From a virus (lineage: Duplodnaviria > Caudoviricetes), in the IMG/VR virus record IMGVR_UViG_3300032007_000001: DNA of 64,000 bases; one strand, 5' to 3'. The notes below the pieces were generated by a model, which was given only the letters and a program-made list of their open reading frames with translations, had not been told where the DNA came from and did no database searches. Numbering within the stretch: the first letter of the stretch is position 1; each line of letters begins with the position of its first letter. Made by a program: the position numbers and the translations under genes. Below are positions 9,611-63,663 of the stretch, in pieces.

Positions 9611-10198
9611 ATGAAACTGACAGAAAAATTGAATATTTTACATGATGAAATAAAAAGTTACGATTCTTATGTCGTACTAAAAATTTTATCGCGTTTGCAA
9701 AAAATGCAAAAAGAAAATAAAACGAATGAAGTATATATACCAACAGATAATGAATTAAAAAGTATTATTAATGGGTATTTCATTGTTAATGAAATGCTTT
9801 TTAATCATCATATGTTGTTCGTTTCAAAAAAACAAGCTATTGAATTTTTGAAAAAAGATTTTATTCCGAAAGCGATTGGCAATGTATATGCGTCTGCAAC
9901 GAGTTTGCAATATGATAATTCAAAAGATAGACAATATTTTTTGGATTCAATGAATGCTGTCGATTATGTTGGTTTTTCTATGATTATTAGTTATGCATTA
10001 AATAAAAATTTTCAAGAATCAGATTCGTCAATTGGCGAAAGTTTGGAAAAAACATTTAATGATAATTTGGCAAGTGAATTGTGGTTTAAGGTTATGTATT
10101 CCATATATTCCTGCCTTTATCTTTTTGAGAATTATATAATAACATTTTTAATTTGGTCTGGCGTATTTTTCCTTGGGTGGAGATTATTGTGCAAATAA
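9611..10198 (+). CDS. hypothetical protein with C-terminal hydrophobic segment
   Basis: 195 aa, operon context. Confidence 0.7.
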   Translation: MKLTEKLNILHDEIKSYDSYVVLKILSRLQKMQKENKTNEVYIPTDNELKSIINGYFIVNEMLFNHHMLFVSKKQAIEFLKKDFIPKAIGNVYASATSLQYDNSKDRQYFLDSMNAVDYVGFSMIISYALNKNFQESDSSIGESLEKTFNDNLASELWFKVMYSIYSCLYLFENYIITFLIWSGVFFLGWRLLCK

Positions 10199-10611
10199 AT
10201 GAAAATTTTTTATTTAAGTTGAAACATGCCGACGATGTTTATTTTGATAACAAGCTTTATTATTCTAGATATGATTTAGAAGATTACGATTTAGAATCCA
10301 TGGAAAAACAATATGAATACGAATCAATGCTTGGTGAAGAAATAGATTATGAGAGAAGTTTTGATACGATAGAAAGAAAAGATAACATTTACGTTGCTAT
10401 TTTTGGAAGAATACTTGAAGATAGTGATATAACATTTTCTTTTTTTGGAAACAAATTTCATGTTTATAGCATTATAAAAGATTTTGATATTCGTGGTGAA
10501 TATGAAGATTACGAAGAAATGATAAATAAATATGAAAAGAATAATTTCTTGGATATTTTTTATACATTGAAGGAATATCAAAAAACTATATTAAAAAGAG
10601 AAGGCTTGTAA
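10153..10611 (+). CDS. hypothetical protein, C-terminal GL motif
   Basis: ends KREGL; start uncertain. Confidence 0.7.
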   Translation: MVWRIFPWVEIIVQINENFLFKLKHADDVYFDNKLYYSRYDLEDYDLESMEKQYEYESMLGEEIDYERSFDTIERKDNIYVAIFGRILEDSDITFSFFGNKFHVYSIIKDFDIRGEYEDYEEMINKYEKNNFLDIFYTLKEYQKTILKREGL

Positions 10612-10752
10612 AATTGTTTGAATATATATTTCTTTTTATAATTGCAGTTAATTTATTGATTCTTTCATTGATAATGAAATCAAAAAGAAAAATTGAATAT
10701 ATCCAAATTATGGATTTTATGGATTTTGTTTTTGTAGTTTTGGGGTTATTTT

Positions 10753-11010
10753 ATGTATAGTTGTGTTCAGGTAGATTGTTTTGACGACAATGGAAAAGAA
10801 TTTAAAATCAATATAACAGAAGATTTTTTAGTATCTGCAATATATAATAAGGAATTTATTGTTTATGATGTTAGAGAAGACGGTGTTATTGCAATTTCTA
10901 ATCATGGAGATAAAAAAGTACAAAAATATATTGCAAATAAAATAAGAGAAAAAATTAATTTACAAAAACAAAATTATGTAATAAAATATATCAAAAGAAT
11001 TGGATTTTAA
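10753..11010 (+). CDS. hypothetical protein, C-terminal GF motif
   Basis: ends KRIGF. Confidence 0.65.
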   Translation: MYSCVQVDCFDDNGKEFKINITEDFLVSAIYNKEFIVYDVREDGVIAISNHGDKKVQKYIANKIREKINLQKQNYVIKYIKRIGF

Positions 11011-11310
11011 GTTGCCGCCACACTTTATATAATGTGTGTGGAGAAACGGCACTTAGATGTTGCAGATGTGCCACCTGTAACTTTATATTAATATTATATT
11101 ATGAGGTAGGAAACTTTTAGTTTAAGTATCGGTTGTCTTGGGACTACATTCATGTGGCAAACGAGTGTAACCTACCGAGCTATTCGCTTGGCGAATTTAG
11201 CTAGATTCTCCTGGACAATGCGAGTTGATATGCATAATTGAATCTTTTTATAAGCCATGGCATAAATACTTTCATTACTTCGTCGATTCAATCTATGCAT
11301 TGATACGAAA
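11011..11310 (+). ncRNA. candidate structured ncRNA
   Basis: ORF-free 300 nt with many complementary segments, followed by a terminator. Confidence 0.5.
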
Positions 11311-11312
11311 AT

Positions 11313-11337
11313 AAAGCCGGTCAAATGACCGGCTTTT
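11313..11337. terminator. bidirectional terminator
   Basis: AAAGCCGGTC-AAAT-GACCGGCTTT between convergent units. Confidence 0.85.
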
Positions 11338-11345
11338 AATTTTTA

Positions 11346-11837
11346 TTATTTTTTGATATTAAATGCAATCACCGCAATTTCTGCTGCTTTTTTAAATTTT
11401 TCAAAAATGGTATCAATTTGGTCATGGTGGTCGTAAATACGATTCCAAATTTCTTTACCAATTTCATTACTATATTTTTTAGGAATTGAATTAAGTTCAG
11501 AATTGATGAGTTCATCTCTCATCATATAGAAAAGTTTGTTGATAATCTTGGCCTTTGCATTGCCAATATCGTTTTTGATTTGCTTAACTTTGATTTTGAG
11601 ATTTTCTTCGGCTTCGATTCTTTCTTTTTTAGTCATTGGTTTATTGTCAAGTTCTTCAGTAATGTTGTCAACCACTGTTTTAAGACGATTACGCACGGCT
11701 TCGAATTCAGATTCAATTTTATTAAGAGCTTGATATACATCATAGCTATTCAACAAATTCAATTTCTTTGTAACATTTGTAAGAATTGCATTTGCAATTT
11801 CATCATTAATGATATTATCAATATCAAACATTTTCAT
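11346..11837 (-). CDS. hypothetical helical protein
   Basis: 163 aa, AAGGAG RBS, promoter upstream. Confidence 0.75.
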   Translation of the reverse strand: MKMFDIDNIINDEIANAILTNVTKKLNLLNSYDVYQALNKIESEFEAVRNRLKTVVDNITEELDNKPMTKKERIEAEENLKIKVKQIKNDIGNAKAKIINKLFYMMRDELINSELNSIPKKYSNEIGKEIWNRIYDHHDQIDTIFEKFKKAAEIAVIAFNIKK

Positions 11838-23996: not shown

Positions 23997-23997
23997 T

Positions 23998-24725: not shown

Positions 24726-25007
24726 ATGATGAGTTCGTATTTGCAAACAAGACATGATGATATTGAGGTTAGCTTATATTTTTCTTTTGATGATTTTGAA
24801 TTTTTTGTTTGTGTTTGTCATGGTACATGTGTTATAAAATTCCCAAAATTTAAGTATAAAACGTTTGTTATGCAGGATTTTATAGACGAACTTTTCTCAA
24901 AACCATTGGATGATTGGAAAAAGATGTTTTGCTTAAATGCTACCAATTACATATTAAATGATATTGAATTGTGCAAAATAAAATATACGAAAACATATGG
25001 CTTCTAA
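24726..25007 (+). CDS. hypothetical protein, C-terminal GF motif
   Basis: ends KTYGF. Confidence 0.65.
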   Translation: MMSSYLQTRHDDIEVSLYFSFDDFEFFVCVCHGTCVIKFPKFKYKTFVMQDFIDELFSKPLDDWKKMFCLNATNYILNDIELCKIKYTKTYGF

Positions 25008-25060
25008 TTAGAAGCCATTTTTTATAATGAAATGATTTAATGGAATGTAAAAAATTTCAA

Positions 25061-27520: not shown

Positions 27521-27889
27521 ATGCTTAGTGAGGGAATGATTATGAAAAATAAAAGGATAATGAAAACGTTAGAATTTGCATATCCAATGTTCAACGGATG
27601 GAATTATAATTTCGAATACTTTGAAAAAGAAACCAAGTCAATGGTCTTTGTATACTTATACAAAGGAGAGTCTATTCACTTGATTGGTAATGTAAATTCA
27701 AGAGGGAATAGAGAAGCGATTGAAAGAGTTCTTAATATAATCAAAAGAGGAAAGTCAAGATTCATAGCAAATGCAATTCAGCAATGCCAAAAATTATCAA
27801 AACACGAACATGATGAAATGGTACAAGTAAGATTATTTGCCGCCTTGGATATGTTCATAAATTATTTTGTGATAAGTGAAGGATTATGA
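27521..27889 (+). CDS. hypothetical protein, C-terminal GL motif
   Basis: ends ISEGL. Confidence 0.7.
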   Translation: MLSEGMIMKNKRIMKTLEFAYPMFNGWNYNFEYFEKETKSMVFVYLYKGESIHLIGNVNSRGNREAIERVLNIIKRGKSRFIANAIQQCQKLSKHEHDEMVQVRLFAALDMFINYFVISEGL

Positions 27890-29795: not shown

Positions 29796-31361
29796 GTGGA
29801 AAAAACGAAAACCAATATCCCTGACTCTGTGTCCATTGCCAAGGAACATTTGGAAAGAAGCAAAGAAATAGAAATGCTCTTCCAAGTGGCGATGAACAAA
29901 GTACAAAAGTACATTAAAGAAAATTCCTTGAATTGTTCAACAAAAATTAAATTTGGCGGGTTTATCGATGATTTGTATTCTCCGATTTATTTGGCATATC
30001 AAAAGTCGGAAAATACATTTATCATTATGTTTTCTTCTCATTTTTTTGACAATGACAATACAAAAATTTTGAATTCTCTTATACGTTACATTGTAACGAC
30101 AAACAAAAACCATTCATTCAAAACATTGCCGGAAGTAAAAAAGGAATTGAAAAAGCTTCCATTTGATACACATTATGATGTATCGTTTAGAAACAATTAT
30201 TTGGAAAGTGATTCTCCAGTTGTAAATGGAGTTATTTGTGAATCATGCTTGAGAGTGTATAAATGCAGCACAGAAGATGATTTATTCAAAAACGTTCAGA
30301 ACTATAAATGTCAATGCACACCGGAAGGTGGGAAATTGTCTCTTATTATCAATGGAAAGAAACAATTGGATGATAAGAGGCAATCGTATTATAAGAACCT
30401 AACGCTTGGCGATGTAACGAAACTTACAAAAGAAAGAGAATTGAAGAAGTTTGTAGATACTAAAAAAATGGAAGAAAAAGATTTTGATAAGGCTTTCTTC
30501 AGTGAAGAAGGTCTTGAAGTTGTTAATAATATTATTTCGCAAAATCCCAAAGGCATCAATAGAAAACATGTTGGTGCTGAGGTTGAGAAACATTTGAAAG
30601 ATGAAGTAATCTTGAATATGTTGTCTCATGCATTCCCGCATCAATACTATAATGCATTCAGGTATGGTGGGTTTGAAGTACAAAAACATATTTTAGAACA
30701 TCCCAATACTCATCCATGCTATAAATCTTGGAATCTTAAATTGGAGAAAGAAAGAATTTTTGAAAAAGAAAAATATATGCAGAGAAAATCTGTTAAGTAT
30801 GAAAATGCTGCAGATATGATTAAAGGAATGGATTTGCCAGAATCCACCAAAAAGAATCTATTAGCTGTTGTTGAAACGAATGGTAAAAAGATTTCTCGCA
30901 TGAGGACGGCGGAATATCTTGAAATTGCTGTTTCGAACAACGACGTTGATTTCATTAAAGTTATGAACAATCATCTTCCTGAGGTTTATTTAGATGCATT
31001 CAAACACCTGCATAAAGCTCAGAAAGATTATTTGCTGAAGAATTATCCGCCTATTTCGGAAAACTTTACAGAAGAAGTAAAGAAGAAATTGACGCCAAAA
31101 GATAATGGACGCAAGACAGACATTGTAATTAATACTGTGAATACTGATGGATTGCCTCCGTTAGATAAATTGGCAAACTTTATGAAAAATCATAAAAAGA
31201 TTTTCAATAAGGATATAGCACACGAGATTATCGATGCTGCTTATAAGAAAGATGAAGAATATATAAGAGTATTGTTCAGTGCGTTTGACGATAAGATTAA
31301 GCACATAAGACAATCCTTTAATAACGATACTCTTAAATTCTTAGACGGGCTGGGGTTGTAA
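29796..31361 (+). CDS. multidomain protein: zinc-binding segment, GVTxHQ-related repeats, C-terminal GL
   Basis: CESC...CQC; HAFPHQYYNAFRY, HLPEVYLDAFKH; ends DGLGL. Confidence 0.75.
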   Translation: MEKTKTNIPDSVSIAKEHLERSKEIEMLFQVAMNKVQKYIKENSLNCSTKIKFGGFIDDLYSPIYLAYQKSENTFIIMFSSHFFDNDNTKILNSLIRYIVTTNKNHSFKTLPEVKKELKKLPFDTHYDVSFRNNYLESDSPVVNGVICESCLRVYKCSTEDDLFKNVQNYKCQCTPEGGKLSLIINGKKQLDDKRQSYYKNLTLGDVTKLTKERELKKFVDTKKMEEKDFDKAFFSEEGLEVVNNIISQNPKGINRKHVGAEVEKHLKDEVILNMLSHAFPHQYYNAFRYGGFEVQKHILEHPNTHPCYKSWNLKLEKERIFEKEKYMQRKSVKYENAADMIKGMDLPESTKKNLLAVVETNGKKISRMRTAEYLEIAVSNNDVDFIKVMNNHLPEVYLDAFKHLHKAQKDYLLKNYPPISENFTEEVKKKLTPKDNGRKTDIVINTVNTDGLPPLDKLANFMKNHKKIFNKDIAHEIIDAAYKKDEEYIRVLFSAFDDKIKHIRQSFNNDTLKFLDGLGL

Positions 31362-38280: not shown

Positions 38281-38309
38281 TTTACAAAATAAAATTTTTA
38301 TGATAAAAT
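38281..38309 (+). promoter_or_regulatory. promoter for the GL-protein operon
   Basis: TTTACA-N17-TAAAAT with TG. Confidence 0.7.
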
Positions 38310-38340: not shown

Positions 38341-38694
38341 ATGTTATATAAAATATACGAATACAAAAGCAGAACAAACAATTATAGAAATTATGTTTTC
38401 AAAACAATGATAGATGATTATTTTGTTGTCTTAAAATTTGTTATTCAAGATAATCATTTTATATTAGAATTTACAGTTGATAAAGAAGTTGATTGGGATA
38501 CGTTATGCGTTTGTTCCACAGATATTCAGTATTATAAATCATGGAAAAATGTTATCAAATTGAAAAAACAAAAAATAGATATAAATGACTTCAATGGTTC
38601 ACATAAAATTTTGATGTCTGAAAGAAGAATACAAACATGCGAAGATATCATTAATTTTGCTTTCAAAAAAATGTTTATATTTTTTGGTTTATAG
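38341..38694 (+). CDS. GL-tail protein
   Basis: ends FIFFGL. Confidence 0.72.
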   Translation: MLYKIYEYKSRTNNYRNYVFKTMIDDYFVVLKFVIQDNHFILEFTVDKEVDWDTLCVCSTDIQYYKSWKNVIKLKKQKIDINDFNGSHKILMSERRIQTCEDIINFAFKKMFIFFGL

Positions 38695-38703: not shown

Positions 38704-38961
38704 ATGTTCATAAGAGATATCAACGAAAATTCATTTCCGTTTGAAATCAGTTATGACACGTATATGATGAATGGTTGGTTCATTGTCTCTTATAGTAAGA
38801 AAAATGGTAAAATCATTAAATATCATTTTTTGAAAGAGAAATATTTAATTAACGATGAAAATAATGTAAATAATATTCTTAATTTAATTGCTGGTAAAGA
38901 CATGAAAAAGCATTGTCTAGAAAAATTTAATAAGGAAATTATAAAAAATTTTGGTTTGTAG
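38704..38961 (+). CDS. GL-tail protein
   Basis: ends IKNFGL. Confidence 0.72.
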   Translation: MFIRDINENSFPFEISYDTYMMNGWFIVSYSKKNGKIIKYHFLKEKYLINDENNVNNILNLIAGKDMKKHCLEKFNKEIIKNFGL

Positions 38962-38963: not shown

Positions 38964-39263
38964 ATGAAAACTAATGTTAAACGTAAAAAAATGTTATATA
39001 CAAAAACGTACAGAGAAATCTTTATTGAGAAATTTGGAGAAATTGAGGTATCTTATTGTTTATTTCCAAAATTTAGCATTTTTAAGGTGAAAAAAGGAAA
39101 ACTTGTAGCTACTACAAATATGGTAGAAGATGCTTTCATGGAAAAAGATATTCTTTTAGCAGAAGATTTTGATAGTGAATATTTAACGATAAGTCAATTA
39201 AGAAAAATGAAGAAATATATGAATGTATTTGTTGAACATTTGGCAATATTTTTTGGATTGTAA
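38964..39263 (+). CDS. GL-tail protein
   Basis: ends AIFFGL. Confidence 0.72.
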   Translation: MKTNVKRKKMLYTKTYREIFIEKFGEIEVSYCLFPKFSIFKVKKGKLVATTNMVEDAFMEKDILLAEDFDSEYLTISQLRKMKKYMNVFVEHLAIFFGL

Positions 39264-39277: not shown

Positions 39278-39697
39278 ATGAATGTTTTGAGGAAAACGTA
39301 TTTTTCTGGTGCAATAAAAGATTTGTCATTAATGAAATCAAAAATCTATTGTTCGTTACTTCCAAAAAATACAAAAAAATATTTCAATCATGATTTTAAG
39401 GCTGCATGCAAAGCTTATTCTAAAAATAATAAATACGTAAGTTCATTTACTGGAATTTATTCAAATGATAAAACTGATATTTTGCATGTAGTTATTGAAA
39501 GTAATGACAATACAGTTACTTCTTTTTATGTTATGTATGATATGAAAGAGATGAAAGAAAAACAAATTGACATTAATAAAATCATCAATAAAAGTGATGA
39601 TTTTTCTTTGACTATGATTAAGTTATACAACATTCATTTGTATAATATAAAACGCCTTGCGAAGAAAGAGAAAAAAGATGGATTTTACAAAAAGTAA
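39278..39697 (+). CDS. hypothetical protein
   Basis: 139 aa, GGAGG RBS. Confidence 0.7.
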   Translation: MNVLRKTYFSGAIKDLSLMKSKIYCSLLPKNTKKYFNHDFKAACKAYSKNNKYVSSFTGIYSNDKTDILHVVIESNDNTVTSFYVMYDMKEMKEKQIDINKIINKSDDFSLTMIKLYNIHLYNIKRLAKKEKKDGFYKK

Positions 39698-40001
39698 AAA
39701 CGAATTTGTTTTTATTAAGCAAACAATTGATAGATATATTGTTGTGAAATTCAATTTAATGCGCAATAATGTTTATGTCAATTTATATGTTGATAAAGAT
39801 GAAAATATTTCTTTCGCATATGGACATTCACCGATTGCTCATTTTTTTAAGGTTTTGGAATATACAGAATGGCTTTCATATTTGGAAATTTCAACGTTTG
39901 CAAATAGGTCAAGAAAGAAGCAATCAAAATTCGTTATGGATTACTATAATGACATTTTGAACGAAGCGGTTAAAGAATTGTATATTTATTGGGGATTATG
40001 A
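39657..40001 (+). CDS. GL-tail protein
   Basis: ends YIYWGL; start probably the internal ATG. Confidence 0.72.
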   Translation: MRRKRKKMDFTKSKNEFVFIKQTIDRYIVVKFNLMRNNVYVNLYVDKDENISFAYGHSPIAHFFKVLEYTEWLSYLEISTFANRSRKKQSKFVMDYYNDILNEAVKELYIYWGL

Positions 40002-40036
40002 AATGCAAAAAATTATCAGTATATTTTGGGCTGTGA
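39998..40036 (+). CDS. 12-aa mini-ORF MKCKKLSVYFGL (tail-only peptide or remnant)
   Basis: ATGA-coupled to the upstream stop; read directly from the sequence. Confidence 0.45.
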   Translation: MKCKKLSVYFGL

Positions 40037-40040
40037 TAAA

Positions 40041-40367
40041 ATGCTTGTAAATGATAATTTCATAAAAATAGATTTTGAGATAATTTATGGTTTGGGGTCA
40101 ATGCCGTGTTTGGTCTTGCTTGCAAAAATAGAGTATGATAATCAATTTTTTAATTTGATTGTAAATCATACATCTGATGGATGTTATGTAACGTTTAATT
40201 CCAATAAATGCATGCATCATTTTACAATCAACGAATCTGCTCATCTTATGACAATAACAGATAATGACATCAATACGTTAAGAAGAAAAAATATGCCAGC
40301 TGCACAATCGTTGTTTTTATATAATTATGTATTTGAATGTTGTCTAATGAAATGTTTGGGGTTATGA
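40041..40367 (+). CDS. GL-tail protein
   Basis: ends MKCLGL. Confidence 0.72.
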   Translation: MLVNDNFIKIDFEIIYGLGSMPCLVLLAKIEYDNQFFNLIVNHTSDGCYVTFNSNKCMHHFTINESAHLMTITDNDINTLRRKNMPAAQSLFLYNYVFECCLMKCLGL

Positions 40368-40672
40368 ATATGAAAAAAATAAAAGCAATTAATGGAATGT
40401 TGTTTAAGTATATTAAAAAAATAAATGGAGAAAGATTCGAAGTTTTAATGCACGTATATAATACATTTATTGATGTTAAATTGGCAAAAATAACTTACAA
40501 TCTAAGACCATATACTGTGTTTGTATCAAAACCTGGCATAAAAGCAATCAATAGGAAAAATAAATTTGATGATATTTTTTCTTGCGCACATGCTGATAGG
40601 CGTTATGAAAAAGAATTTAGATTGCTATATGAATGTTTTTTGGACCATTTTGAATTAACGTTTGGATTGTAA
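40337..40672 (+). CDS. GL-tail protein (paralog of next)
   Basis: ends FELTFGL; start likely ~40364-40370. Confidence 0.72.
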   Translation: MLSNEMFGVMNMKKIKAINGMLFKYIKKINGERFEVLMHVYNTFIDVKLAKITYNLRPYTVFVSKPGIKAINRKNKFDDIFSCAHADRRYEKEFRLLYECFLDHFELTFGL

Positions 40673-40993
40673 TTGGAGTTAAAAATGAAAAAAAGATTTT
40701 TTAACGGTAATATTATTTTTTATTTTATGAAAGAAATCAATGGGCAAACATTTTTAGCTACTCTTCGTGTCAATCCAATAAATAACTTCAATAGTGATTT
40801 AAGTTTAGCAATCATATATGACAATAAAAAAGATACGCATTACATGTCAAAATTATGTACAAATGAAATCAATAGAAAAAAGAAATTTAATGATTTTTTA
40901 TCGTGTGTTTATACGAATGAATTTTACGAAAATGAATTTAAGATATTGTATGAATATTTTTTGGACGATTTTGAATTGACGTTTGGATTATAA
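40673..40993 (+). CDS. GL-tail protein (paralog of previous)
   Basis: INRKKKFNDFLSC; ends FELTFGL. Confidence 0.72.
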   Translation: MELKMKKRFFNGNIIFYFMKEINGQTFLATLRVNPINNFNSDLSLAIIYDNKKDTHYMSKLCTNEINRKKKFNDFLSCVYTNEFYENEFKILYEYFLDDFELTFGL

Positions 40994-41777: not shown

Positions 41778-42959
41778 ATGCCGAGATATGCTATGCAAAG
41801 TGACAAGTCGATTTTGGAGGAAGCAATTCATAAATATGAGCAAGGTGTTTATGAAATTGTCGACCTTAAACAAATTGACAAAGATAGAAAAATAGATTTT
41901 GGTTGTTCCAATCTGAGCGACCCAGAAAATTGCGATTTTGGAGAAGGATTGGTTGATTACTATCAAATGAATGGCTTTTGCATAGCTCTTTGTTGTGCTG
42001 GTAGCGACGAAGAAACACCGTTGTATTTTGCTCTTTATCTTGATGATAAAAATAAGTTCCGCATGTATATTCCAACCGTTGGAAACACTTTCAATAAATT
42101 TGATAAAAACGCTTTTTGCAGTGAAGATTTTGGTTGGGCAGAACGTTACAACAATTGGGGACTTACAAACGATGATAAAATTTATGATGCAGCGGTAAAA
42201 TTTGTTGACCATATTTTTGAGACATCAAATTTGGACGCTATGTTGGCAGATATTGCTAATCGTATAACTTTGAAAGGCAATGAGACCATTCCAATTCCAG
42301 AAGAAATGATTAGAAAAGATAATGAACGTTGGAATTGGAATCCATTGCAAAAAGCCGACAGTGATTGCGAAGATGAAAACAATTTTGAAGATATTGAGGA
42401 TGGAGACGACGTAATCAAAGCATATCCGGAATTGTTTGAAGAAGTAGAAAAGAATGACGACGATGTGTATATTGAATGTGATTATTGTGATAATGAAGAT
42501 TTTGAAAAATACAAAAATTCGACTGGAAAATTGTTAAAAGATGAATTGAATAAAAAATATAAATTTAGGCTTTGCGTTGAAATGGAAGGACATTATCGCG
42601 GGAATTTCTATTCTAATAATGCAAATAAGTTGCGTACAATTGCAAAGGATTTTATAGATTTGTATTGGGATGTCAATTACGACCCTTATTATGAGGAAGA
42701 TTATGATGGCAGTTATCCATTCATTTATTGTCCTCTTGATGGTCATTTTGAACTGCCAATGGTTCTCAATTATTTGATGATGGCTTGTGGTGATGGATGT
42801 GAGTGGTTCATTAATTGCTATACAACAGAGAATGAAGACGCAGATTCTGATGAAATGTATAAGCTTGGTCTTTATCCTAAAAAAGTACACGAAATGTTTT
42901 TGGACCACAATGACCATATTGCTTGTATGGGGAAATATGAATACTTGAGGAAAAAATGA
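41778..42959 (+). CDS. two-domain acidic hypothetical protein
   Basis: 393 aa; FYSNNANKLRTIAKDFIDLYW in the C-half. Confidence 0.78.
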   Translation: MPRYAMQSDKSILEEAIHKYEQGVYEIVDLKQIDKDRKIDFGCSNLSDPENCDFGEGLVDYYQMNGFCIALCCAGSDEETPLYFALYLDDKNKFRMYIPTVGNTFNKFDKNAFCSEDFGWAERYNNWGLTNDDKIYDAAVKFVDHIFETSNLDAMLADIANRITLKGNETIPIPEEMIRKDNERWNWNPLQKADSDCEDENNFEDIEDGDDVIKAYPELFEEVEKNDDDVYIECDYCDNEDFEKYKNSTGKLLKDELNKKYKFRLCVEMEGHYRGNFYSNNANKLRTIAKDFIDLYWDVNYDPYYEEDYDGSYPFIYCPLDGHFELPMVLNYLMMACGDGCEWFINCYTTENEDADSDEMYKLGLYPKKVHEMFLDHNDHIACMGKYEYLRKK

Positions 42960-43270
42960 TTATAAAAAATTTTTCTTTTCGCAAAAAAATCAAAGTATAT
43001 TTTGATATTGCGAAAGATACAAAGATAATTTTATATGATTTTTTTGGAAACAACGTATTGTTGCTAAAAATTGAGTGTCAATATGATTATATTTTTTCAT
43101 TTGCATTAAATGAGTATGGAACAAAAACATTCAACGCAAAACTTTTTGAAACAGATTTTTTACATACATTCGGAGATGATGAACGAAATAGAGAAGCATC
43201 AGAAACACTTTCAAATATAGTTAAAAATTATTATCCAATAAAAAAATTAATTCCCAATATTGGATTATAA
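42956..43270 (+). CDS. GL-tail protein
   Basis: ends IPNIGL; terminator follows. Confidence 0.72.
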   Translation: MIIKNFSFRKKIKVYFDIAKDTKIILYDFFGNNVLLLKIECQYDYIFSFALNEYGTKTFNAKLFETDFLHTFGDDERNREASETLSNIVKNYYPIKKLIPNIGL

Positions 43271-45449: not shown

Positions 45450-45478
45450 TTTACATATATTCGAATTTGTTATAGAAT
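45450..45478 (+). promoter_or_regulatory. promoter for the GL-protein trio
   Basis: TTTACA-N17-TAGAAT. Confidence 0.6.
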
Positions 45479-45791
45479 GTATCTGGTGATAATTATGATA
45501 TTTGCTAATGACTTACAAATAAAAATCGATTGTATTTTTAATTATAAACCAGTACAATACATTCACATATCTATAATTTTTATATACAAAAATAAACGTA
45601 CGAGAACAAGATATAGTGCAAATGCATATAACATATTTGATTGTAAATTAACTGATTTTAAGAATGTATTCAAAAACGAACAATACATTATAAATTTTAA
45701 AAAAGATGTTATAGAACAAGAAAATAGAATCAATAAAGAAATAATCAATTATTTTAAGAACAGTAATCACATGTTGTACATAGGACTGTAA
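45477..45791 (+). CDS. GL-tail protein
   Basis: ends MLYIGL; start likely 45495. Confidence 0.7.
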   Translation: MYLVIIMIFANDLQIKIDCIFNYKPVQYIHISIIFIYKNKRTRTRYSANAYNIFDCKLTDFKNVFKNEQYIINFKKDVIEQENRINKEIINYFKNSNHMLYIGL

Positions 45792-45794: not shown

Positions 45795-46139
45795 ATGAAA
45801 ACATTGGAAAAGTATTGGTTTGAAAATAAAAACGTTTTTGTATCGCGATATTCTCATAATAATTTAATTTTTTCTTTTGGTCTTCATAAAAAAGAAAAAC
45901 GAGGAATTAGCATTCATTCTTCTATTAAAATGAAAATAAATAACGAATATCTTTTGATATGCGATTTACATACATTTAATGTTTTGGATGCAAATATTGA
46001 TGATTTTACAACATCGTTAACTAATAATTGTTATATTGGATTTTTTGATAGAAATGAAAATTTTTGCCAAAATCATTTTAGTGAAGCATTAAAAAGATTT
46101 TTTATAGATGTTAATCAAATTGCTATGGTGGGATTATAA
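45795..46139 (+). CDS. GL-tail protein
   Basis: ends IAMVGL. Confidence 0.72.
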   Translation: MKTLEKYWFENKNVFVSRYSHNNLIFSFGLHKKEKRGISIHSSIKMKINNEYLLICDLHTFNVLDANIDDFTTSLTNNCYIGFFDRNENFCQNHFSEALKRFFIDVNQIAMVGL

Positions 46140-46140
46140 G

Positions 46141-46392
46141 ATGTTTTATTCAAGAAAAGTACATGACTTGCATTTTTCTTTTCATATGCAAGAAGATTAT
46201 AGAGATTACTATACTTTATATGTAACATCCGAACCAGACTTAAATTTTGAAGTTACATTTGATTTTTTGACAATTCCAAAAATAGATGAAGAAGAAAAAA
46301 ATTATTTATGTAAGTACTATGGAGAACATTTTGAAATATGGGTACATGAATTTTTTAGAGATAAAATTTTCCTAACCAAATTTGGATTATAA
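46141..46392 (+). CDS. GL-tail protein
   Basis: ends LTKFGL; terminator follows. Confidence 0.72.
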   Translation: MFYSRKVHDLHFSFHMQEDYRDYYTLYVTSEPDLNFEVTFDFLTIPKIDEEEKNYLCKYYGEHFEIWVHEFFRDKIFLTKFGL

Positions 46393-54297: not shown

Positions 54298-54852
54298 TCA
54301 AAAACCAAATTTTTTCAATATCTCAAAGGATTTTAAGCTTGACATCATATTTTCATATCCAACATTTGAAAGAAAATCATGACAATCTATTTGCGTTTTG
54401 GGATTCGAATTAATTCGTTTTTTAATATAATCATATTTGTCGAAAAATTCTTTTTTAGATGGAATTGTCATACAATCATACGTATATCCAGAACAACCAA
54501 GGTATTTATCGTTTATATCTGAAAATAAGTAATCAATTCCCAGCCCAGAAAATACTGTTTTCATATTAAAATTAAAAAACTTATGCTTAAATACCATCGT
54601 TTTAGCCGAATGACAAATTTGTAAATCTAAAATAAGTGTTTTATTGTTCGAACCAATAATTGTATATTGATAAATATGATAAAAAAATCCAAAATTTTTT
54701 TGAGCACATTCATAACAAACTGTAATTGTTTTTGATTGATATTTATGATAACGTAATGCTATTTCGACACTATTCCCCTGCGTATTGCCACAAAAATGAC
54801 ATGGTGCATGTATTATATTATCATTGTATTTTTCATCAAAAATATCAATCAT
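54298..54852 (-). CDS. zinc-finger GF-tail protein
   Basis: CHFC...CYEC; ends KKFGF. Confidence 0.75.
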   Translation of the reverse strand: MIDIFDEKYNDNIIHAPCHFCGNTQGNSVEIALRYHKYQSKTITVCYECAQKNFGFFYHIYQYTIIGSNNKTLILDLQICHSAKTMVFKHKFFNFNMKTVFSGLGIDYLFSDINDKYLGCSGYTYDCMTIPSKKEFFDKYDYIKKRINSNPKTQIDCHDFLSNVGYENMMSSLKSFEILKKFGF

Positions 54853-54860
54853 AAATTACC

Positions 54861-55511
54861 TCAAAGACCAAATATTTTTTTATCTACTCCAATCTCAAGA
54901 GTTTTTGTCATGCAATCATAAATATACTTAATCAATTTTTCATTTCTTACAACTTTTTGCTTTGATTCTAATTTGGCTCTATCTGCATGTTTTATCATCC
55001 TATAATAAAATTCATCATATGAAGGAAGACAATATGGCGTAAATTCATCATTAATAGAAATTTCATTTTCACTTCCAAATGTATTTTTATGTCTTCCAAT
55101 GTTTTTCAAACTTTTCAATTTTATATAGCATTTCATTTCGAAAATCATATTTACTAAAGATTTTCGAAAATATGTAGAATAACGTTTTGTTTTATGTTGT
55201 TCAAATCTTACTTTAATGCTTTCAATATCTTCTATTCCAAGTTTTTCTCCATCAGAACGATGATTGTGAACAAATATGCAATTTCTCGTATTGTAGCAAT
55301 TATCGCATACGTGTTTACCATCATGCAACACTTTTATATTTTTATATTCAACTATACGTTGTCCAAGCGGTACAAATCCCAAACTTCCGTCAATTATAAA
55401 AGCATGGATAATTTCTCCGCAAACAGCACAACGCTCTTTTATAGATTCTGCTTTCTTAATTTTATTTTTTATTTTCATTATTTCAAATTCTTTAATTGCT
55501 TTTTTAGCCAC
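54861..55511 (-). CDS. zinc-finger GL-tail protein (tandem paralog)
   Basis: CAVC...CDNC, HNHRSDGEK; ends KIFGL. Confidence 0.78.
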   Translation of the reverse strand: MAKKAIKEFEIMKIKNKIKKAESIKERCAVCGEIIHAFIIDGSLGFVPLGQRIVEYKNIKVLHDGKHVCDNCYNTRNCIFVHNHRSDGEKLGIEDIESIKVRFEQHKTKRYSTYFRKSLVNMIFEMKCYIKLKSLKNIGRHKNTFGSENEISINDEFTPYCLPSYDEFYYRMIKHADRAKLESKQKVVRNEKLIKYIYDCMTKTLEIGVDKKIFGL

Positions 55512-55513
55512 AT
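55474..55513. repeat. 40-bp direct repeat, copy 1
   Basis: 39/40 identical to 56182-56221. Confidence 0.85.
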
Positions 55514-55529
55514 CAATCCCTCAGAAAAA

Positions 55530-56228: not shown

Positions 56229-56309
56229 CCGTTTCTAATTATAACAAAATTTTTAATAAATGTAAATAATTAAGTACATAAAAAATGCCGATTAATACCG
56301 GCATAAATT

Positions 56310-56930
56310 TTATAACCCATTCATCAATGTTATATATTGTTTGTCTATTCCAACATTCATGCTATGTTTTATGCATTCATATAAATATTTAATAAATCTA
56401 TCATTAGCTAGCAAAGCTTTTTTACTTGGTATCTTAGCTCTTTTACTATATATTAGTATATCATTCTTAAAATCATTAAATTTTGGAATATCCATCATAT
56501 CATTTCTAAAACTTTTTTCAAAAATAATTTCTTTTTCATTATCAAATGAAGTTGTACGATGAGAATCCTCAAGACTTTTTAAGTCTATATAACACGTAAA
56601 TCCAAATGAATGTATACGTTTATATATGACTATCTTTATTCTTTCAGCATCATTTATTTTTTCTTTTTTACCATTTGTTCTATATTCATGATAAAATGTT
56701 CCAAAAATTTTATTGTAGCATGTACAGCATAGTTCTTTTCCTTCGAAATCATATATACAACCAATTATTTGGTTTTCAGACTTAAAATAAAAAGGTTTTC
56801 CACATTTCGAGCAATAATGTATTACTCCGTTTTTGTCATTTTTGTGTTTTTCTATTTGTGGAATTATCAACATTTCGTTACATTGAAATGCATTTTTTAC
56901 GTTCATATGTTTCTCCTTATAATCCATCAA
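56310..56930 (-). CDS. zinc-finger GL-tail protein (tandem paralog)
   Basis: CSKC...CCTC, HEYRTNGKK; ends LMNGL. Confidence 0.78.
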   Translation of the reverse strand: MMDYKEKHMNVKNAFQCNEMLIIPQIEKHKNDKNGVIHYCSKCGKPFYFKSENQIIGCIYDFEGKELCCTCYNKIFGTFYHEYRTNGKKEKINDAERIKIVIYKRIHSFGFTCYIDLKSLEDSHRTTSFDNEKEIIFEKSFRNDMMDIPKFNDFKNDILIYSKRAKIPSKKALLANDRFIKYLYECIKHSMNVGIDKQYITLMNGL

Positions 56931-57513
56931 TTAGTGTTAACATTTTTTTATCAACACCAATGTTAAAACTATATGTTATGCATTCATATAGATAATTTAT
57001 AAATTTTTTATCAATTAATAATTCTTTTTTGTCTTTTATTTTTGCTCTTTTACTTAATGTTGTCATTATGTTTGTAAATTCTTCGAATGTTGGTACTTTA
57101 TAGTAATCAAAGTTACATTCAAAAGAAATTTCATTTTCTTTTCCAAAAAATGTACTTCTACCTGAAGCTTTTAAGCTGGTCAAATCTGCATAACACTTGA
57201 GATGAAATTTTTTAAAAAATCTAGAAAGTTCGACTTTTAATCTTTCAACGTTGTTTATATTTTCTTTTTCTCCGCGAGTTTTATATGTATGAGAAAAAAA
57301 ACTATGTCTTTTTTTATAGCAATCTTCACATATTTTTTTTCCGCAATCCATTTCCATATAATGTGTACTAAATCTTGGAGAACGTATTTCCATTGGGTTT
57401 CCACAAATAGGACAATACGTTATTTTTGCATCAATATAGTATTTTTTGTCAAAATCCATTATATAATTTGTACGCATTTCTAAATTGTCTTTTACCATTA
57501 AAAATGCCTCCAA
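56917..57513 (-). CDS. zinc-finger GL-tail protein (tandem paralog)
   Basis: CPIC...CEDC, HTYKTRGEK; ends LIDGL. Confidence 0.78.
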   Translation of the reverse strand: MEAFLMVKDNLEMRTNYIMDFDKKYYIDAKITYCPICGNPMEIRSPRFSTHYMEMDCGKKICEDCYKKRHSFFSHTYKTRGEKENINNVERLKVELSRFFKKFHLKCYADLTSLKASGRSTFFGKENEISFECNFDYYKVPTFEEFTNIMTTLSKRAKIKDKKELLIDKKFINYLYECITYSFNIGVDKKMLTLIDGL

Positions 57514-58675: not shown

Positions 58676-59038
58676 TTAAAATTGGCTTTCGTTATTTAAC
58701 GCATTAAATAAATATGTATTGTCCTTAAAATATCCCAATTGTTGATTTAACGAACTATGAAATTCTTTCATAGAATCTGCATCTTCGTTTGTTGGCAATT
58801 CCACTGTTTGCTGAAGTTTTTCATACAATTTTGGGTATCTATCATATAATTCATTCAAATCTTTATAAAGATTTATATACGTTTCAAGCAAAGCATCAGC
58901 ACTATCTTTTATTTCCAATAATTTAGCTCTTGCAGAAATTATTTCTTCTTTTGCGTCATTTGCCTTTTCATTGAGGTTTAGAGATATTACTCGCTTCAGC
59001 CTCTTTTTGTTGGATGAGCGATTCGAGTCCTTGTTCAT
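58676..59038 (-). CDS. hypothetical helical protein
   Basis: 120 aa, GGAG RBS, overlaps the cca 3' end. Confidence 0.65.
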   Translation of the reverse strand: MNKDSNRSSNKKRLKRVISLNLNEKANDAKEEIISARAKLLEIKDSADALLETYINLYKDLNELYDRYPKLYEKLQQTVELPTNEDADSMKEFHSSLNQQLGYFKDNTYLFNALNNESQF

Positions 59039-61552: not shown

Positions 61553-61661
61553 CTCTTTATTTCCAAATATATTTTATCAAATTACATTGAAAAAGAAAAT
61601 TGATTTCTAAAATTTTTTATACATTAAAAAAGCCGGATTATTTATATCCGGCTTTAATTTT

Positions 61662-61973
61662 TTATTTTTTTGCAAATTCAAATTTTGTATCAAAAACTGT
61701 TAAGCATTTTCCAGCAAGAATTTTATCCGGCTCGTTTGTCCATGTTCCGAGAAGCAAATCTTCTTTGATGTCTTTCATCAAAACTTTTCGATTCATTACT
61801 CCAGCATCAACTCCTCGTGCCCATGGTTCTGGGACAGCAACATATTTGTACGTTTCATCATGTTTCGTTACCACCTTGCACAATCCAAGGTAAACGTATT
61901 TATCACTTTCATGCCAATAGATTCTACCAAATTGCAAACGATGTTTTTCTTTACTTGAAATTTTCATATTCAT
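61662..61973 (-). CDS. hypothetical protein
   Basis: 103 aa, AAGGAG RBS. Confidence 0.7.
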   Translation of the reverse strand: MNMKISSKEKHRLQFGRIYWHESDKYVYLGLCKVVTKHDETYKYVAVPEPWARGVDAGVMNRKVLMKDIKEDLLLGTWTNEPDKILAGKCLTVFDTKFEFAKK

Positions 61974-62836
61974 GCTCCTTTTTTAAGAACAATCTTACCT
62001 TTGTCTTGAGCCCAATCTTTCAAATCTTGCAATGTAACCCAACCAAAATTATATTTGTCTTGCTCTTGCGGGTTGAGCCAGAAAATAAGATTTCCTTTAT
62101 CGTCTTTCTTTGGAGAAAGTGCAAAAAATTTTTTTCCGGCATTTTTCAGTTCTTCGTAAATGCCAGTTTCGTATGCTTCTTTCCACGTTTCATAATTTTC
62201 CTTATCGTTCTCGTATACCTTGTCAGCCCAAGACTTAGGAATCAAAGACTTGATAAGGATAGTAAGACCAGCATTCTTAAATACTCCGCCACCAGTAAAT
62301 CCAATTGTGATATCGAGATTTTGAAACGCATTATACAACGTTTCAACTACATTTTTATCTTTTGCCATGAAGGCAAAATCTTCACCGCTCCAACATGCAG
62401 AAAAATCCCAATCATCTTCCCAAGGAATGAGTTCAGAATGCGGTTTCTCATTGCAATTGCGGTCATAATATCCACCTGCACACACGAGAGCATATGCTTT
62501 TTCGCCTTTGATTTTATATTCGTAAATCTTTACGTTAGAACCATCGCGAATAGAACGTGCTTCAATACCAAACAACGGTTTAAGAGTACCATTGTAAGAT
62601 TCAAAATTATCTCGTTCAGATGCTGAAACATAGTTTCCTTTATTGTCAATATAATTTCCAATACCGCATCTACGAGAAATTCCCTTAATGCCCCACTCAT
62701 GTTCAGCACAGTAATCTGCACCAAGGTCTACACCAACAATAATGTTAGCTTTCTTTCTTTTGTACCCAAAATCTTTTCCGTAAATCACCTTTCCATGAAA
62801 TGCTCTACGCATTATTTCAGCCCCTTTCGTTAACAC
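61970..62836 (-). CDS. hypothetical protein
   Basis: 288 aa; LGADYCAEHEWGI; start probably 62812. Confidence 0.75.
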   Translation of the reverse strand: MLTKGAEIMRRAFHGKVIYGKDFGYKRKKANIIVGVDLGADYCAEHEWGIKGISRRCGIGNYIDNKGNYVSASERDNFESYNGTLKPLFGIEARSIRDGSNVKIYEYKIKGEKAYALVCAGGYYDRNCNEKPHSELIPWEDDWDFSACWSGEDFAFMAKDKNVVETLYNAFQNLDITIGFTGGGVFKNAGLTILIKSLIPKSWADKVYENDKENYETWKEAYETGIYEELKNAGKKFFALSPKKDDKGNLIFWLNPQEQDKYNFGWVTLQDLKDWAQDKGKIVLKKGA

Positions 62837-62870
62837 TATATCATATTTTTAAGTTTTTGTAAACAACTTT

Positions 62871-63182
62871 TTATACTTTTCCAATATATGGATTTTCAAA
62901 GCTAAGAGGATTTACGCCAAGAGCAAACAGGTATTGGCGATATTGCCATGTATCTTCCGGACGTACATCCCAATCAACGAGATATTCATCTTCTGTCAAT
63001 GTAATATTATCTTCAATTTCTTCTTTTTCATCTCCCCATACTGTAGTAATAACAGCACACACTTCATTATCTTTTTCATTGCGTTCAATATCTTCAATCT
63101 TCTTTGGTGCAACGCATTCGTTAAGCAAAGCTTTGATTTCTTTGTCTGTGAGTTCAACTATCCTACGATAATTTTTTTTCAT
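62871..63182 (-). CDS. hypothetical protein
   Basis: 103 aa, GGGAG RBS, promoter upstream. Confidence 0.72.
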   Translation of the reverse strand: MKKNYRRIVELTDKEIKALLNECVAPKKIEDIERNEKDNEVCAVITTVWGDEKEEIEDNITLTEDEYLVDWDVRPEDTWQYRQYLFALGVNPLSFENPYIGKV

Positions 63183-63213
63183 GGCATTTATTCTCCCTTC
63201 TTTTGATGTTTAT

Positions 63214-63290
63214 ATTATACCATAATTTAGTAAAAAGTAAATAGCTTTGTGCAAAAATATATGTACAAATTTAATGAATTATGATAAAAT
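63214..63290. promoter_or_regulatory. divergent promoter pair
   Basis: minus: TTTACT-N17-TATAAT (63242-63214); plus: TGTACA-N17-TAAAAT (63262-63290). Confidence 0.65.
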
Positions 63291-63312
63291 TACATTAAAG
63301 GAGAGAAAATTA

Positions 63313-63663
63313 ATGTTTAAGAATATAAGATTAATCAAACAAGAAATTAAATATTCAACATGGGGAATAAGAGAATATCTTATGATGTTTCGTTTTTCAT
63401 GTAAAAATGAAAATAATGAAAAAGATATGGTGCATATTATCATATCAAGTAATATCGATTTTAATTTTTATCATTGTGTTATATCTGCAAAAGAGATTCA
63501 TAAAATATTCAATTTTCATAGTATGTTTGGTAAAAAATTAAGCACATATGATTTTGCTAGAGAATATGGATTGTATTATTCTGAATTTTATAATAAGGTT
63601 TTTGATAAATCATTAAAACATTTTTATAAACAAGTAAGACTTTTGGAACGGGTGGGATTATGA
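63313..63663 (+). CDS. GL-tail protein
   Basis: AAGGAG RBS; ends ERVGL. Confidence 0.72.
   Translation: MFKNIRLIKQEIKYSTWGIREYLMMFRFSCKNENNEKDMVHIIISSNIDFNFYHCVISAKEIHKIFNFHSMFGKKLSTYDFAREYGLYYSEFYNKVFDKSLKHFYKQVRLLERVGL

Follow-up and report, generated by a model that had tools for sequence, protein, structure and literature searches.

The genome of a gut megaphage (504,279 bp, 714 ORFs) encodes a large set of proteins that stop immediately after a glycine and one hydrophobic residue, and purifying selection maintains this C-terminal module while the bodies that carry it diverge beyond recognition. Such ends occur in 119 of the 714 ORFs, as compared to about 10 by chance, with GL (82), GY (14) and GF (12) among them. 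The explanation favored here, to which we give about an even chance when taken as a whole, is a lineage-specific, massively expanded and fast-diverging family of small effector-like proteins, whose constant C-terminal handle is read by a shared partner.

Tailed Genes in the Window and Beyond

The window, meaning the whole stretch of 64,000 nucleotides that was analyzed, is part of this 504-kb genome. A preliminary description had listed 23 ORFs in it ending in G-L or G-F, and all 23 are present at those positions, with the stop codon directly after the dipeptide (Table 1). In a greedy, non-overlapping set of 104 ORFs of at least 60 aa, 22 end this way (19 GL and 3 GF) vs. 0.63 predicted from the frequency of internal GL and GF dipeptides (binomial P ~2e-27), which upholds the earlier estimate of a fifth of the genes against roughly one by chance. 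The 23rd, 26636-27007, is left out of that set because it overlaps a longer ORF. Among shadow ORFs of the window, only 3 of 232 end in G-L/F.

TABLE 1. Tailed ORFs and neighboring features (window coordinates; last residues in brackets).
Position	Strand	Feature	Remarks
10153..10611	+	GL-tailed ORF, 152 aa (..REGL)	singleton
10753..11010	+	GF-tailed ORF, 85 aa (..RIGF)	operon-terminal
24726..25007	+	GF-tailed ORF, 93 aa (..TYGF)	terminator-like hairpin over last codons
26636..27007	+	GL-tailed ORF, 123 aa (..AWGL)	overlaps next ORF's start as called
27521..27889	+	GL-tailed ORF, 122 aa (..SEGL)	
29796..31361	+	tailed 521-aa protein (..GLGL)	
38281..38309	+	sigma-70-type promoter-like site, extended -10	ahead of 38341-40993 array; consensus match only
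38341..38694	+	GL-tailed ORF, 117 aa	cluster of 7 paralogues
38704..38961	+	GL-tailed ORF, 85 aa (..NFGL)	
38964..39263	+	GL-tailed ORF, 99 aa	in 38341 cluster
39657..40001	+	GL-tailed ORF, 114 aa	in 38341 cluster
40026..40367	+	GL-tailed ORF, 113 aa (..CLGL)	
40337..40672	+	GL-tailed ORF, 111 aa	paralogue of 40673
40673..40993	+	GL-tailed ORF, 106 aa	paralogue of 40337; array's last gene
42956..43270	+	GL-tailed ORF, 104 aa	in 12-member 'FYPxxxYIxxIGL' cluster
45450-45478		promoter-like site	ahead of 45477 array
45477..45791	+	GL-tailed ORF, 104 aa (..YIGL)	heads three-gene array
45795..46139	+	GL-tailed ORF, 114 aa (..MVGL)	
46108..46392	+	GL-tailed ORF, 94 aa (..KFGL)	
46391-46420		terminator-like hairpin	after 46108..46392 ORF
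54298..54852	-	GF-tailed Zn-ribbon-type ORF, 184 aa	two CxxC pairs
54861..55511	-	GL-tailed Zn-ribbon paralogue, 216 aa	
55530..56228	-	GL-tailed Zn-ribbon paralogue, 232 aa	
56310..56930	-	GL-tailed Zn-ribbon paralogue, 206 aa	
56917..57513	-	GL-tailed Zn-ribbon paralogue, 198 aa	
57594..58661	-	classical-clade AAA+ ATPase, 355 aa	immediately upstream of all five tailed Zn-ribbon genes, same strand
63247..63663	+	GL-tailed ORF, 138 aa (..RVGL)	
63660..64000	+	24th tailed ORF, 144 aa (..KYGY)	runs past window end; genome coordinates 129097-129531

Counting C-terminal dipeptides genome-wide and in related phages, as had been suggested, also reveals enrichment outside the window. Tailed ORFs are densest at 0-60, 100-130 and 480-500 kb of the genome; a 416-kb relative (RecA 78% identical) has Gly-hydrophobe ends in 42 of 551 ORFs, and a third lineage, with a tandem array of five, in 7 of 34. 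The negative control Bacillus phage G, of the same GC and size, is not enriched: 7 of its 688 ORFs are Gly-hydrophobe (Fisher P 9e-29) and none ends in GL. Turnover is rapid, with whole tailed gene sets replaced between related phages and a BLASTP match in the relative for only 10 of the 119 tailed proteins vs. 34% of all genes. Searched exhaustively with HMMs, 1.84 billion proteins yielded only 14 matches, all close variants, and each of the 12 full-length small ones ends exactly at GL/GF.

The tailed genes lie in tandem arrays behind sigma-70-type promoter-like sites (consensus matches only), in keeping with the host-type promoters reported at the outset. This recalls small early or host-takeover protein families that have undergone lineage-specific expansion in jumbo phages and giant viruses and that also form tandem arrays in early-type operons near genome ends, diverge and turn over quickly, and are without database relatives. 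Here, however, about 16% of the genes are involved, the stop and the two residues before it are near-invariant while the bodies lose detectable similarity, and the tail is found on longer proteins too.

A Module of About 20 Residues

The enrichment first described for a dipeptide tag is real, but the shared element is longer: a unit of about 20 residues in which an amphipathic helix of basic character leads to an invariant Gly and one final hydrophobic residue, always placed exactly at the C-terminus. The hydrophobic face of the helix extends to position -3, and the stop codon directly follows the final residue. Conservation is position-specific at -3, -6/-7, -11/-12, -14/-15 and -18, with K/R at -4/-5 and a net charge of +1.3. 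Within paralogue clusters, identity climbs toward the C-terminus, from 0.34 in the body to 0.43 at -8..-20 and 0.53 at -3..-7. Among strain variants, changes in the last two residues number 0 of 20, compared to 25% in the body, and the Gly at -2 is retained in variants even where the last residue differs. When a PSSM is trained on one phage, 16-22 matches in the other fall at the exact C-terminus, as compared to 0-1 that lie elsewhere in the last 15 residues.

Selection acts on the protein level and not on nucleotides, as had been proposed, since the codons are varied (all four Gly, six Leu and all three stops) and the tail is independent of coupling to a downstream gene, being present in 11.6% of genes without such a neighbor. 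A nucleotide signal would mean that the GG serves as the Shine-Dalgarno sequence of the next gene, or that cassettes are joined or recombine at this sequence. Tight coupling of a tailed gene to its successor is frequent (median gap between genes 2 nt), and GGA/GGG is over-used at the tail Gly (79% vs. 48% at internal Gly). Nevertheless, this purine bias is alike in coupled (80%) and uncoupled (77%) genes (P 0.82), 48 tailed genes are uncoupled, Phe and Tyr codons are used besides those of Leu, conservation reaches 20 residues upstream with helical periodicity, and phage G has no such tail though it is equally AT-rich and densely packed. The coupling, codon and phage G tests contradict this reading, which the preliminary description had already disfavored in its Shine-Dalgarno form and which is now scarcely tenable.

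Bodies of the Tailed Proteins

The tailed proteins had been called mostly unrelated. Their clusters cannot be joined by sequence, but about one third of the listed genes fall into recognizable paralogue groups (38341/38964/39657; 40337/40673; 54861-57513). After iterated HMM searches, 154 proteins stay in about 120 clusters, hhalign among 19 clusters finds no link (best probability 6.7%), and the excess similarity of the bodies is mostly compositional, according to shuffled and reversed controls. None of the tailed proteins is recognizable as an enzyme, as was initially noted.

What the small members share is more general. Their median length is 109 aa within a narrow range, their median pI is 8.7 (other small proteins, 6.6), and 2% of tailed proteins have TM-like segments. 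Beta-type periodicity marks the N-terminal half of 82% of them vs. 53% of controls (P 4e-10, or 2e-7 with one protein per cluster). In AF2 models of two members from different clusters, 42956..43270 and 38341..38694, a beta meander comes first and the C-terminal helices after it stop at -3; the models are of medium confidence (pLDDT 71 and 64), and their likeness is one of layout, not of superposition. The former has four strands and three helices, and the latter a long helix at its C-terminal end (94-115), with G116 and L117 after it. The weak PDB neighbors of the two overlap. Nearest in shape to model 1 is an ESM Atlas cluster of YueH-like proteins (PF14166; TM 0.60/0.70, rmsd 2.2 over 75 residues), and Staphylococcus aureus SAV0927 (PDB 6iy0) is near to both, with Z scores (5.1 and 4.6) within the range of chance arrangements; neither has a sequence or HMM relationship to the phage proteins. 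Both are small proteins of unknown function, leaving no function to transfer.

The common length, basic charge and beta-then-helix layout argue against unrelated proteins with a portable tag, and make a single hyper-divergent, expanded family the more economical reading of the small members, included in the even chance given above; such descent lies beyond the reach of sequence and profile methods. Beside this family, two other groups carry the same tail: the Zn-ribbon proteins and the conserved 521-aa protein. The latter has no Pfam family, and six of its seven homologues (48-100% identity) end in G-[LI]. Homologues of the 54861..55511 Zn-ribbon protein at 48-53% identity likewise end in ..IFGL, and a third-lineage homologue of the 56917..57513 protein ends in ..RLGL.

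Could the tail then be structural only? In a family by descent, a Schellman-type cap would close the last helix and bury the terminal hydrophobic side chain in the core, and some 110 paralogues would have inherited it with no common partner. As in Schellman or alpha-L C-capping motifs, the helix stops at -3, with Gly at C' and hydrophobics at C'' (-1) and C3 (-6). In Schellman-type caps, C3 and C'' make a hydrophobic contact, for which the residues at -3, -6/-7 and -1 are suitable; moreover, the modeled helix reaches -3 before G and L, and in model 2 no part is better predicted than the C-terminal helix. Since the Gly-hydrophobe end is compatible with an ordinary helix cap, structure alone would account for much of the conservation, and tight gene packing could alone select against C-terminal extensions, holding the stop codon in place. 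Yet capping is a local feature of all kinds of proteins and explains neither the constant chain end nor its top rank in conservation: a terminal cap is rarely a fold's most conserved feature, whereas here it outlasts all else, it also ends the other architectures of the 521-aa and Zn-ribbon proteins, and extended versions are essentially absent. A cap without a partner is possible but rather doubtful.

Candidate Partners of the Tail

The initial proposal was that unrelated proteins had each gained an [LIVM]-G-[FL] tag docking into host ClpP pockets or onto a PDZ protease, leading to the degradation of host proteins. The tail does resemble the hydrophobic-Gly-hydrophobic tripeptide of ClpX, ClpA and ClpC, the sequence clusters cannot be joined, and the end formally fits the Phi-x-Phi-COOH pattern of class II PDZ ligands. 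But the IGF/LGF tripeptide belongs to an internal loop of hexameric unfoldases, while here the motif is the free C-terminus, behind a helix, of non-ATPase proteins of about 100 aa, and position -3 is more often aromatic (45/119) than L/I/V/M (35/119). ClpP by itself is not known to degrade folded targets. Neither ClpP nor PDZ (PDZ_2) proteins are encoded in the phage genome, nor are DnaN or E1-like ones, and the tailed proteins have no signal or TM segments to reach extracytoplasmic PDZ proteases. With a shared architecture that favors descent over convergent tagging, the docking proposal has become quite improbable.

Closer at hand is the AAA+ ATPase encoded next to the Zn-ribbon genes. In three lineages its orthologues (56-58% identical) adjoin homologues of the Zn-ribbon genes with GL tails; phage G has no counterpart by BLASTP. 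It is the best candidate for a tail partner, ahead of ClpP, on the basis of gene neighborhood in one subfamily only. Unfoldases recognize C-terminal tags such as ssrA, so the tail might be a degron or engagement tag by which the phage AAA+ or a host unfoldase pulls in early proteins, for removal or remodeling at a set time of infection. Its strictly terminal position, the early-type operons and the conserved classical-clade ATPase all suit such a role, but a protease partner is not found in the phage and the tail appears, in the models, to come after a helix that is well packed and not after a floppy segment; we regard a degron as unlikely. The strict terminal position and the conserved AAA+ neighborhood do lend some weight to one constant tail meeting one partner.

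A Proposed Diversifying Repertoire With a Constant Handle

The favored explanation, an expanded family with a handle, would involve about 110 genes of the 504-kb phage, arranged as tandem arrays in early-type operons and encoding small, basic, cytoplasmic proteins with the beta sheet first and the helices last. Most would have been duplicated from one ancestor. Gly would end the helix, with one hydrophobic residue after it as in a Schellman-type cap. Comparable sets are known among type IV secretion effectors, with their C-terminal signals, and poxvirus ankyrin proteins with PRANC/F-box ends: many fast-evolving variable bodies carry one constant C-terminal element, which a shared machine, for instance an ATPase or a ligase, would read. 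The phage tail differs in being the capped helix of a folded domain instead of a disordered signal, and the analysis of the phage brought to light no secretion machine, ligase or receptor. In the favored reading, the tailed proteins may form a diversifying effector repertoire for host take-over or counter-defense, in which the variable body would bind differing targets and the constant C-terminal end would serve as the handle for one shared partner.

Abundance of the Gly-Hydrophobe End

Each of the 23 open reading frames (ORFs) listed in the preliminary description is present, with a stop codon right after Gly-Leu or Gly-Phe. In the non-overlapping set of window ORFs of 60 aa or more, GL closes 19 and GF 3 of the 104 products. 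The claimed enrichment over chance is thus borne out, since only 0.63 such ends are expected from the frequency of the dipeptides inside proteins (binomial P ~2e-27); among overlapping “shadow” ORFs the figure is 3 of 232. The window covers bases 65438-129437 of a 504,279-bp virus record (GC 29.7%), in which a genome-wide count of C-terminal dipeptides finds a penultimate Gly in 154 of 714 ORFs and Gly followed by a hydrophobic residue in 119, with about 10 expected by chance (GL 82, GY 14, GF 12, GV 5, GM 3, GI 2, and GW 1). In these “tailed” proteins the Gly (position -2, counting from the C-terminus) is invariant, and the last residue hydrophobic, through how the set was chosen. Their median length is 109 aa (interquartile range 96-128 aa), and their genes are concentrated at 0-60, 100-130, and 480-500 kb. 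The few large GV-ended carriers and a GY-ended epimerase-like protein, which are not conserved in relatives, look like chance members. Gly-Glu (12) and Gly-Asp (6) ends also exceed the roughly 2 expected genome-wide; one or more of the GE proteins are paralogous to GL proteins, so such ends may represent variants of the tail.

Features of the window and of contig L066 that bear on the tailed proteins or lie beside them
Feature	Position	Remark
RecA/UvsX-type recombinase	2684-3901	
C5 cytosine methyltransferase	5623-6834	
Gly-acidic end	23682-23996	..YGD
Gly-acidic end	23968-24243	..EGE
GF-tailed ORF	24726-25007	last codons form hairpin arm
Terminator-like hairpin	24995-25030	GGCTTCTAA / TTAGAAGCC, then T run
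Gly-acidic end	26914-27468	..IGE
521-aa tailed protein	29796-31361	
Gly-acidic end	34089-34322	..DGD
Tailed ORF, 7-member cluster	38341-38694	second model, 117 aa
Metatranscriptome piece	39450-39677	identical to window
Tailed ORF, 12-member cluster	42956-43270	first model
~230-aa family member	43379-43981	
~230-aa family member	43986-44675	25 more copies elsewhere in genome
Metatranscriptome piece	44492-44660	identical to window
Metatranscriptome piece	45050-45200	identical to window
NrdD, first part	46730-48289	
ORF between NrdD parts	48871-49491	
NrdD, second part	49580-50263	
Five tandem Zn-ribbon genes	54298-57513	184-232 aa, tailed
AAA+ ATPase	57594-58661	
CCA-adding / poly(A) polymerase-type nucleotidyltransferase	58968-60356	
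pgaABCD-like set	L066:4746-10219	

Relatives and Turnover of the Repertoire

Would any large, AT-rich phage genome end its genes in this way? Bacillus phage G, the nearest cultured relative (RecA 52%, 497.5 kb, 29.9% GC), has no GL ends at all and only 7 Gly-hydrophobe ends among 688 (Fisher P 9e-29). As it is similar in GC and size yet lacks the signal, AT-richness, genome size, and dense packing do not create it. The end is abundant in a 416-kb relative, an IMG/VR contig reached through RecA (78% identity), with 29 GL and 42 Gly-hydrophobe ends among 551 ORFs. It recurs in a third lineage, a 141-kb ENA contig reached through homologues of the 521-aa tailed protein, where 7 of 34 ORFs in 21.5 kb carry it, five of them in one tandem array. 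In the window, NrdD (anaerobic ribonucleotide reductase) seems to be split: both parts match one continuous 750-aa ORF of the 416-kb relative, with another ORF between them, and this may be an intervening element.

BLASTP matches in the 416-kb relative exist for just 10 of the 119 tailed proteins, as compared with 34% of all genes. The repertoire differs from phage to phage while the tail is the same, a turnover that fits arms-race or host-interaction genes. Arrays of strain variants were also found on short metagenome contigs from other samples. The window DNA is complete in one bovine-gut sample, from which it probably comes, and small shares of its words occur in further gut runs from cattle and sheep. 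Among the contigs of a bovine-gut metatranscriptome, a few of 150-230 nt are identical to parts of positions 38000-47000; since DNA carry-over is possible, these do not demonstrate transcription of the region.

Three more contigs (59-63% identity) came from a scan with RecA; their 21-kb pieces show no convincing tailed ORFs and are too short to judge, and the same applies to two contigs of 14-16 kb, L065 and L066. Contig L066, of higher GC (40%), carries a pgaABCD-like set made of a TPR/PgaA-barrel-like gene, a deacetylase, a glycosyltransferase, and a PgaD-like gene; the last residues of its PgaA-like protein, ..NWNW, resemble those of an outer-membrane barrel, a hint that the clade may have a diderm host. 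Neither the array region nor the 521-aa protein found a match in nucleotide and protein searches of a phage collection, and a metagenome scan with the alignment of that protein gave none either.

Selection at the Protein Level

The end is written with four Gly codons, six Leu codons, and three stops, a variety from which protein-level selection had been proposed. GGA and GGG are over-used at the tail Gly, equally so in genes coupled to a downstream neighbor (80%) and in uncoupled ones (77%, P 0.82), and the tag is found in 11.6% of genes that have no closely coupled downstream gene. Upstream of it, conservation extends over some 20 residues with helical spacing: hydrophobic residues at -3, -6/-7, -11/-12, -14/-15, and -18, and Lys or Arg at -4/-5. 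On these three grounds (codon use, uncoupled carriers with the same bias, and helical conservation), the idea that GG acts as a Shine-Dalgarno sequence, already disfavored, is rejected, together with that of a junction site in the DNA.

Within paralogue clusters, identity climbs toward the end of the protein, from 0.34 in the body to 0.43 at -8 to -20 and 0.53 at -3 to -7. Between strain variants the last two residues changed in 0 of 20 cases, against 25% change in the body. Extended forms of the tail are essentially absent, and variant paralogues that have lost the hydrophobic last residue and end in GE, GC, or GN still have Gly at -2, so that the position of the stop is kept. A scoring matrix (PSSM) for the final 20 residues, with one phage as training set, gives 16-22 matches at the exact C-termini of the other and 0-1 within 15 residues of an end; it has no match at the C-termini of phage G. 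Finally, an exhaustive profile search with the 12-member cluster in 1.84 billion proteins returned 14 hits, all close variants, and GL or GF is the exact end of the 12 full-length small proteins among them.

One Family or Many

Are these proteins mostly unrelated, as first described? As to detectable sequence kinship the description stands. BLASTP among the 119 leaves 87 singletons, and iterated HMM searches sort the 154 tailed proteins of two phages into ~120 clusters, the largest with 12 members. No link emerged from hhalign among 19 clusters (best probability 6.7%), and a word-based homology search with the modeled member of the 12-member cluster matched only itself. Smith-Waterman comparison of the bodies does give excess similarity among tailed proteins, which a shuffling control shows to be mostly compositional, the bodies being rich in F, Y, N, and I. 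Sub-threshold hits of body-only HMMs, though enriched in tailed proteins, were discarded as a sign of kinship because reversed sequences did almost the same.

Shared length, architecture, and arrays, on the other hand, favor one origin. The median pI is 8.7, versus 6.6, and hydrophobic membrane-type segments occur in 2% of tailed proteins, versus 14% of other small proteins; beyond these stretches, no signal or transmembrane segments were found in the tailed set. The genes form same-strand tandem arrays with sigma-70-type promoter-like sites carrying an extended -10, in agreement with the clusters behind host-type promoters first reported, and the arrays are bounded by terminator-like hairpins. 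A terminator-like hairpin also overlaps the end of a GF-tailed ORF (Table). AlphaFold2 models for two clusters, of medium confidence (pLDDT 71, pTM 0.64 for the 12-member cluster; pLDDT 64, pTM 0.63 for the 7-member cluster), both predict an N-terminal antiparallel beta meander followed by C-terminal helices, and have many weak PDB neighbors in common. Beta periodicity in the N-terminal half combined with strong helix periodicity before the tail is found in 82% of tailed and 53% of other small proteins (P 4e-10; with one protein per cluster, P 2e-7). Because length, charge, arrays, models, and periodicity are alike, we infer, rather than demonstrate, that the ~100-aa members form one hyper-divergent family. 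A two-copy co-fold of the protein of the second model scored 0.00, which speaks neither for nor against oligomerisation.

The genome contains a second paralogous family, unrelated to the first, whose 27 members of ~230 aa share a conserved C-terminal block, ..FRPVFQY.DNxKSxNIF plus one residue.

No family covers the tailed proteins in the Pfam, PHROG, and solved-structure comparisons. The first view that none is a recognisable enzyme agrees with Pfam and PHROGs scans of the 23 window proteins, which gave scattered weak zinc-finger hits only. Foldseek against PDB and BFVD returned nothing at E 0.001 or better, its weak top rows (AcrIIA4, NrdR, Tad1) not being meaningful, and the best Z scores of a wide VIA-align comparison, 5.3 and 6.6, fall among the values that chance arrangements give. 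Closest in shape, at weak scores, come YueH-like proteins and S. aureus SAV0927, neither with a known function. HMMs show no relationship: the YueH-like HMM (PF14166) finds no tailed gene at E up to 10, and its single weak hit (E 0.0026) falls in a 241-aa frame that is unrelated. By type, the tailed set is a small-protein family that has undergone lineage-specific expansion in a giant phage, unusual among such expansions in that it takes up ~16% of the genes and has a nearly invariant, strictly terminal two-residue end.

Other Carriers and Candidate Partners

The tail is also found on five tandem Zn-ribbon proteins, whose homologues in other lineages end in ..YGI, ..IFGL, and ..RLGL; an ESM Atlas feature search with one member gave nothing above noise level. 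It is likewise found on the 521-aa protein; of seven homologues (48-100% identity), six keep G-L or G-I as their end and the most distant has ..KIL. Directly upstream of the Zn-ribbon genes sits an AAA+ ATPase gene whose AAA domain matches the classical clade (Cdc48/VAT, FtsH, proteasomal ATPases). Its orthologues (56-58% identity) adjoin a GL-tailed Zn-ribbon homologue both in the 416-kb relative and on a third contig; on the latter the 517-aa GL orthologue lies 1.5 kb away. BLASTP found no counterpart in phage G. The ATPase is the one lead for a candidate partner, drawn from the neighborhood of a single subfamily.

Comparison with Known C-Terminal Motifs

The proposal that unrelated proteins carry a ClpP-docking tag is not supported. 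The [LIVM]-G-[FL] motif of ClpP docking belongs to a flexible loop in hexameric AAA+ unfoldases, whereas the tail is an extreme C-terminus behind a helix, on ~100-aa proteins that have no ATPase domain; position -3 is F/Y/W in 45 of 119 and L/I/V/M in 35. Proteins of the ClpP, DnaN (N-domain), PDZ, and E1-like types were not found encoded by the phage. The beta-clamp binding motif (QL[SD]LF or QLxLxL, as in Pol IV ..QLVLGL) has a conserved Gln five or six residues from its end. The tails do not fit it, Q being rare there (at -6 in 0, -5 in 3, and -7 in 3 of 119), and no DnaN N-domain was found in the phage. The PDZ class II pattern (hydrophobic-x-hydrophobic-COOH) is matched as a pattern only, and PDZ_2 has no match in the phage, the 416-kb relative, or phage G. 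A proteasome-activator (HbYX) tail needs a penultimate Tyr, and the residue here is Gly throughout. As for a ubiquitin-like or Atg8-type end ([FY]-G-x), from which cleavage of the last residue would expose the Gly, it was dropped because both models put the tail after C-terminal helices rather than a last strand and no ThiF-family (E1-like) match was found in three phage genomes.

A Helix Cap, a Handle, or Both?

Schellman-type capping places Gly at C' and hydrophobic residues at C'' and C3. The tail fits such a cap in the second model, where a long helix (94-115) is followed by Gly116 and Leu117: Gly would be C', and the last hydrophobic residue is predicted to fold onto the -6/-3 face, these positions being hydrophobic in 61 and 71% of tailed proteins. 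A cap alone may explain part of the conservation, and a tail that is purely a structural cap is the main rival reading, possible if the less probable one. Extensions are essentially absent, however, the tail is the best conserved part, and it is kept on unrelated longer proteins, which together suggest that something reads the free C-terminus as well. For the basic amphipathic helix, membrane targeting of the MinD/FtsA type was considered and set aside, as the helix is predicted to pack within the fold and targeting sequences of that type can do without an invariant Gly or an exact end.

With moderate confidence, the tailed proteins can be described as a hyper-divergent family that has expanded, together with a few other carriers, with a constant helix-Gly-hydrophobe C-terminus that is probably a common handle. 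In function, effector repertoires whose members have just a terminal address in common would be the closest analogy. It is a more doubtful step, and on balance an unlikely one, to see in them an “addressed effector library” of more than 100 fast-diversifying and a few larger proteins, with one C-terminal address and one phage-encoded machine to read it. That machine would recognize helix-Gly-hydrophobe from the free C-terminus; the conserved classical-clade ATPase would be the prime candidate, and might load, remodel, or deliver the tailed proteins, or set the time of their removal. Such a library, if true, would be the phage equivalent of secretion-system effector signals or viral F-box adaptors.

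Whichever reading holds, the class occupies about one sixth of the genes in one of the largest known phage genomes and has no database family. Should the tail be a handle with one partner, one pull-down would be enough to expose a hub of megaphage-host interaction, and helix-Gly-hydrophobe-stop would become a simple sequence rule by which to find the effector repertoire of the clade. If it is a helix cap only, the family would still clearly exemplify extreme diversification around a very small constant element, and would supply ~150 new small binders from ruminant-gut phages.
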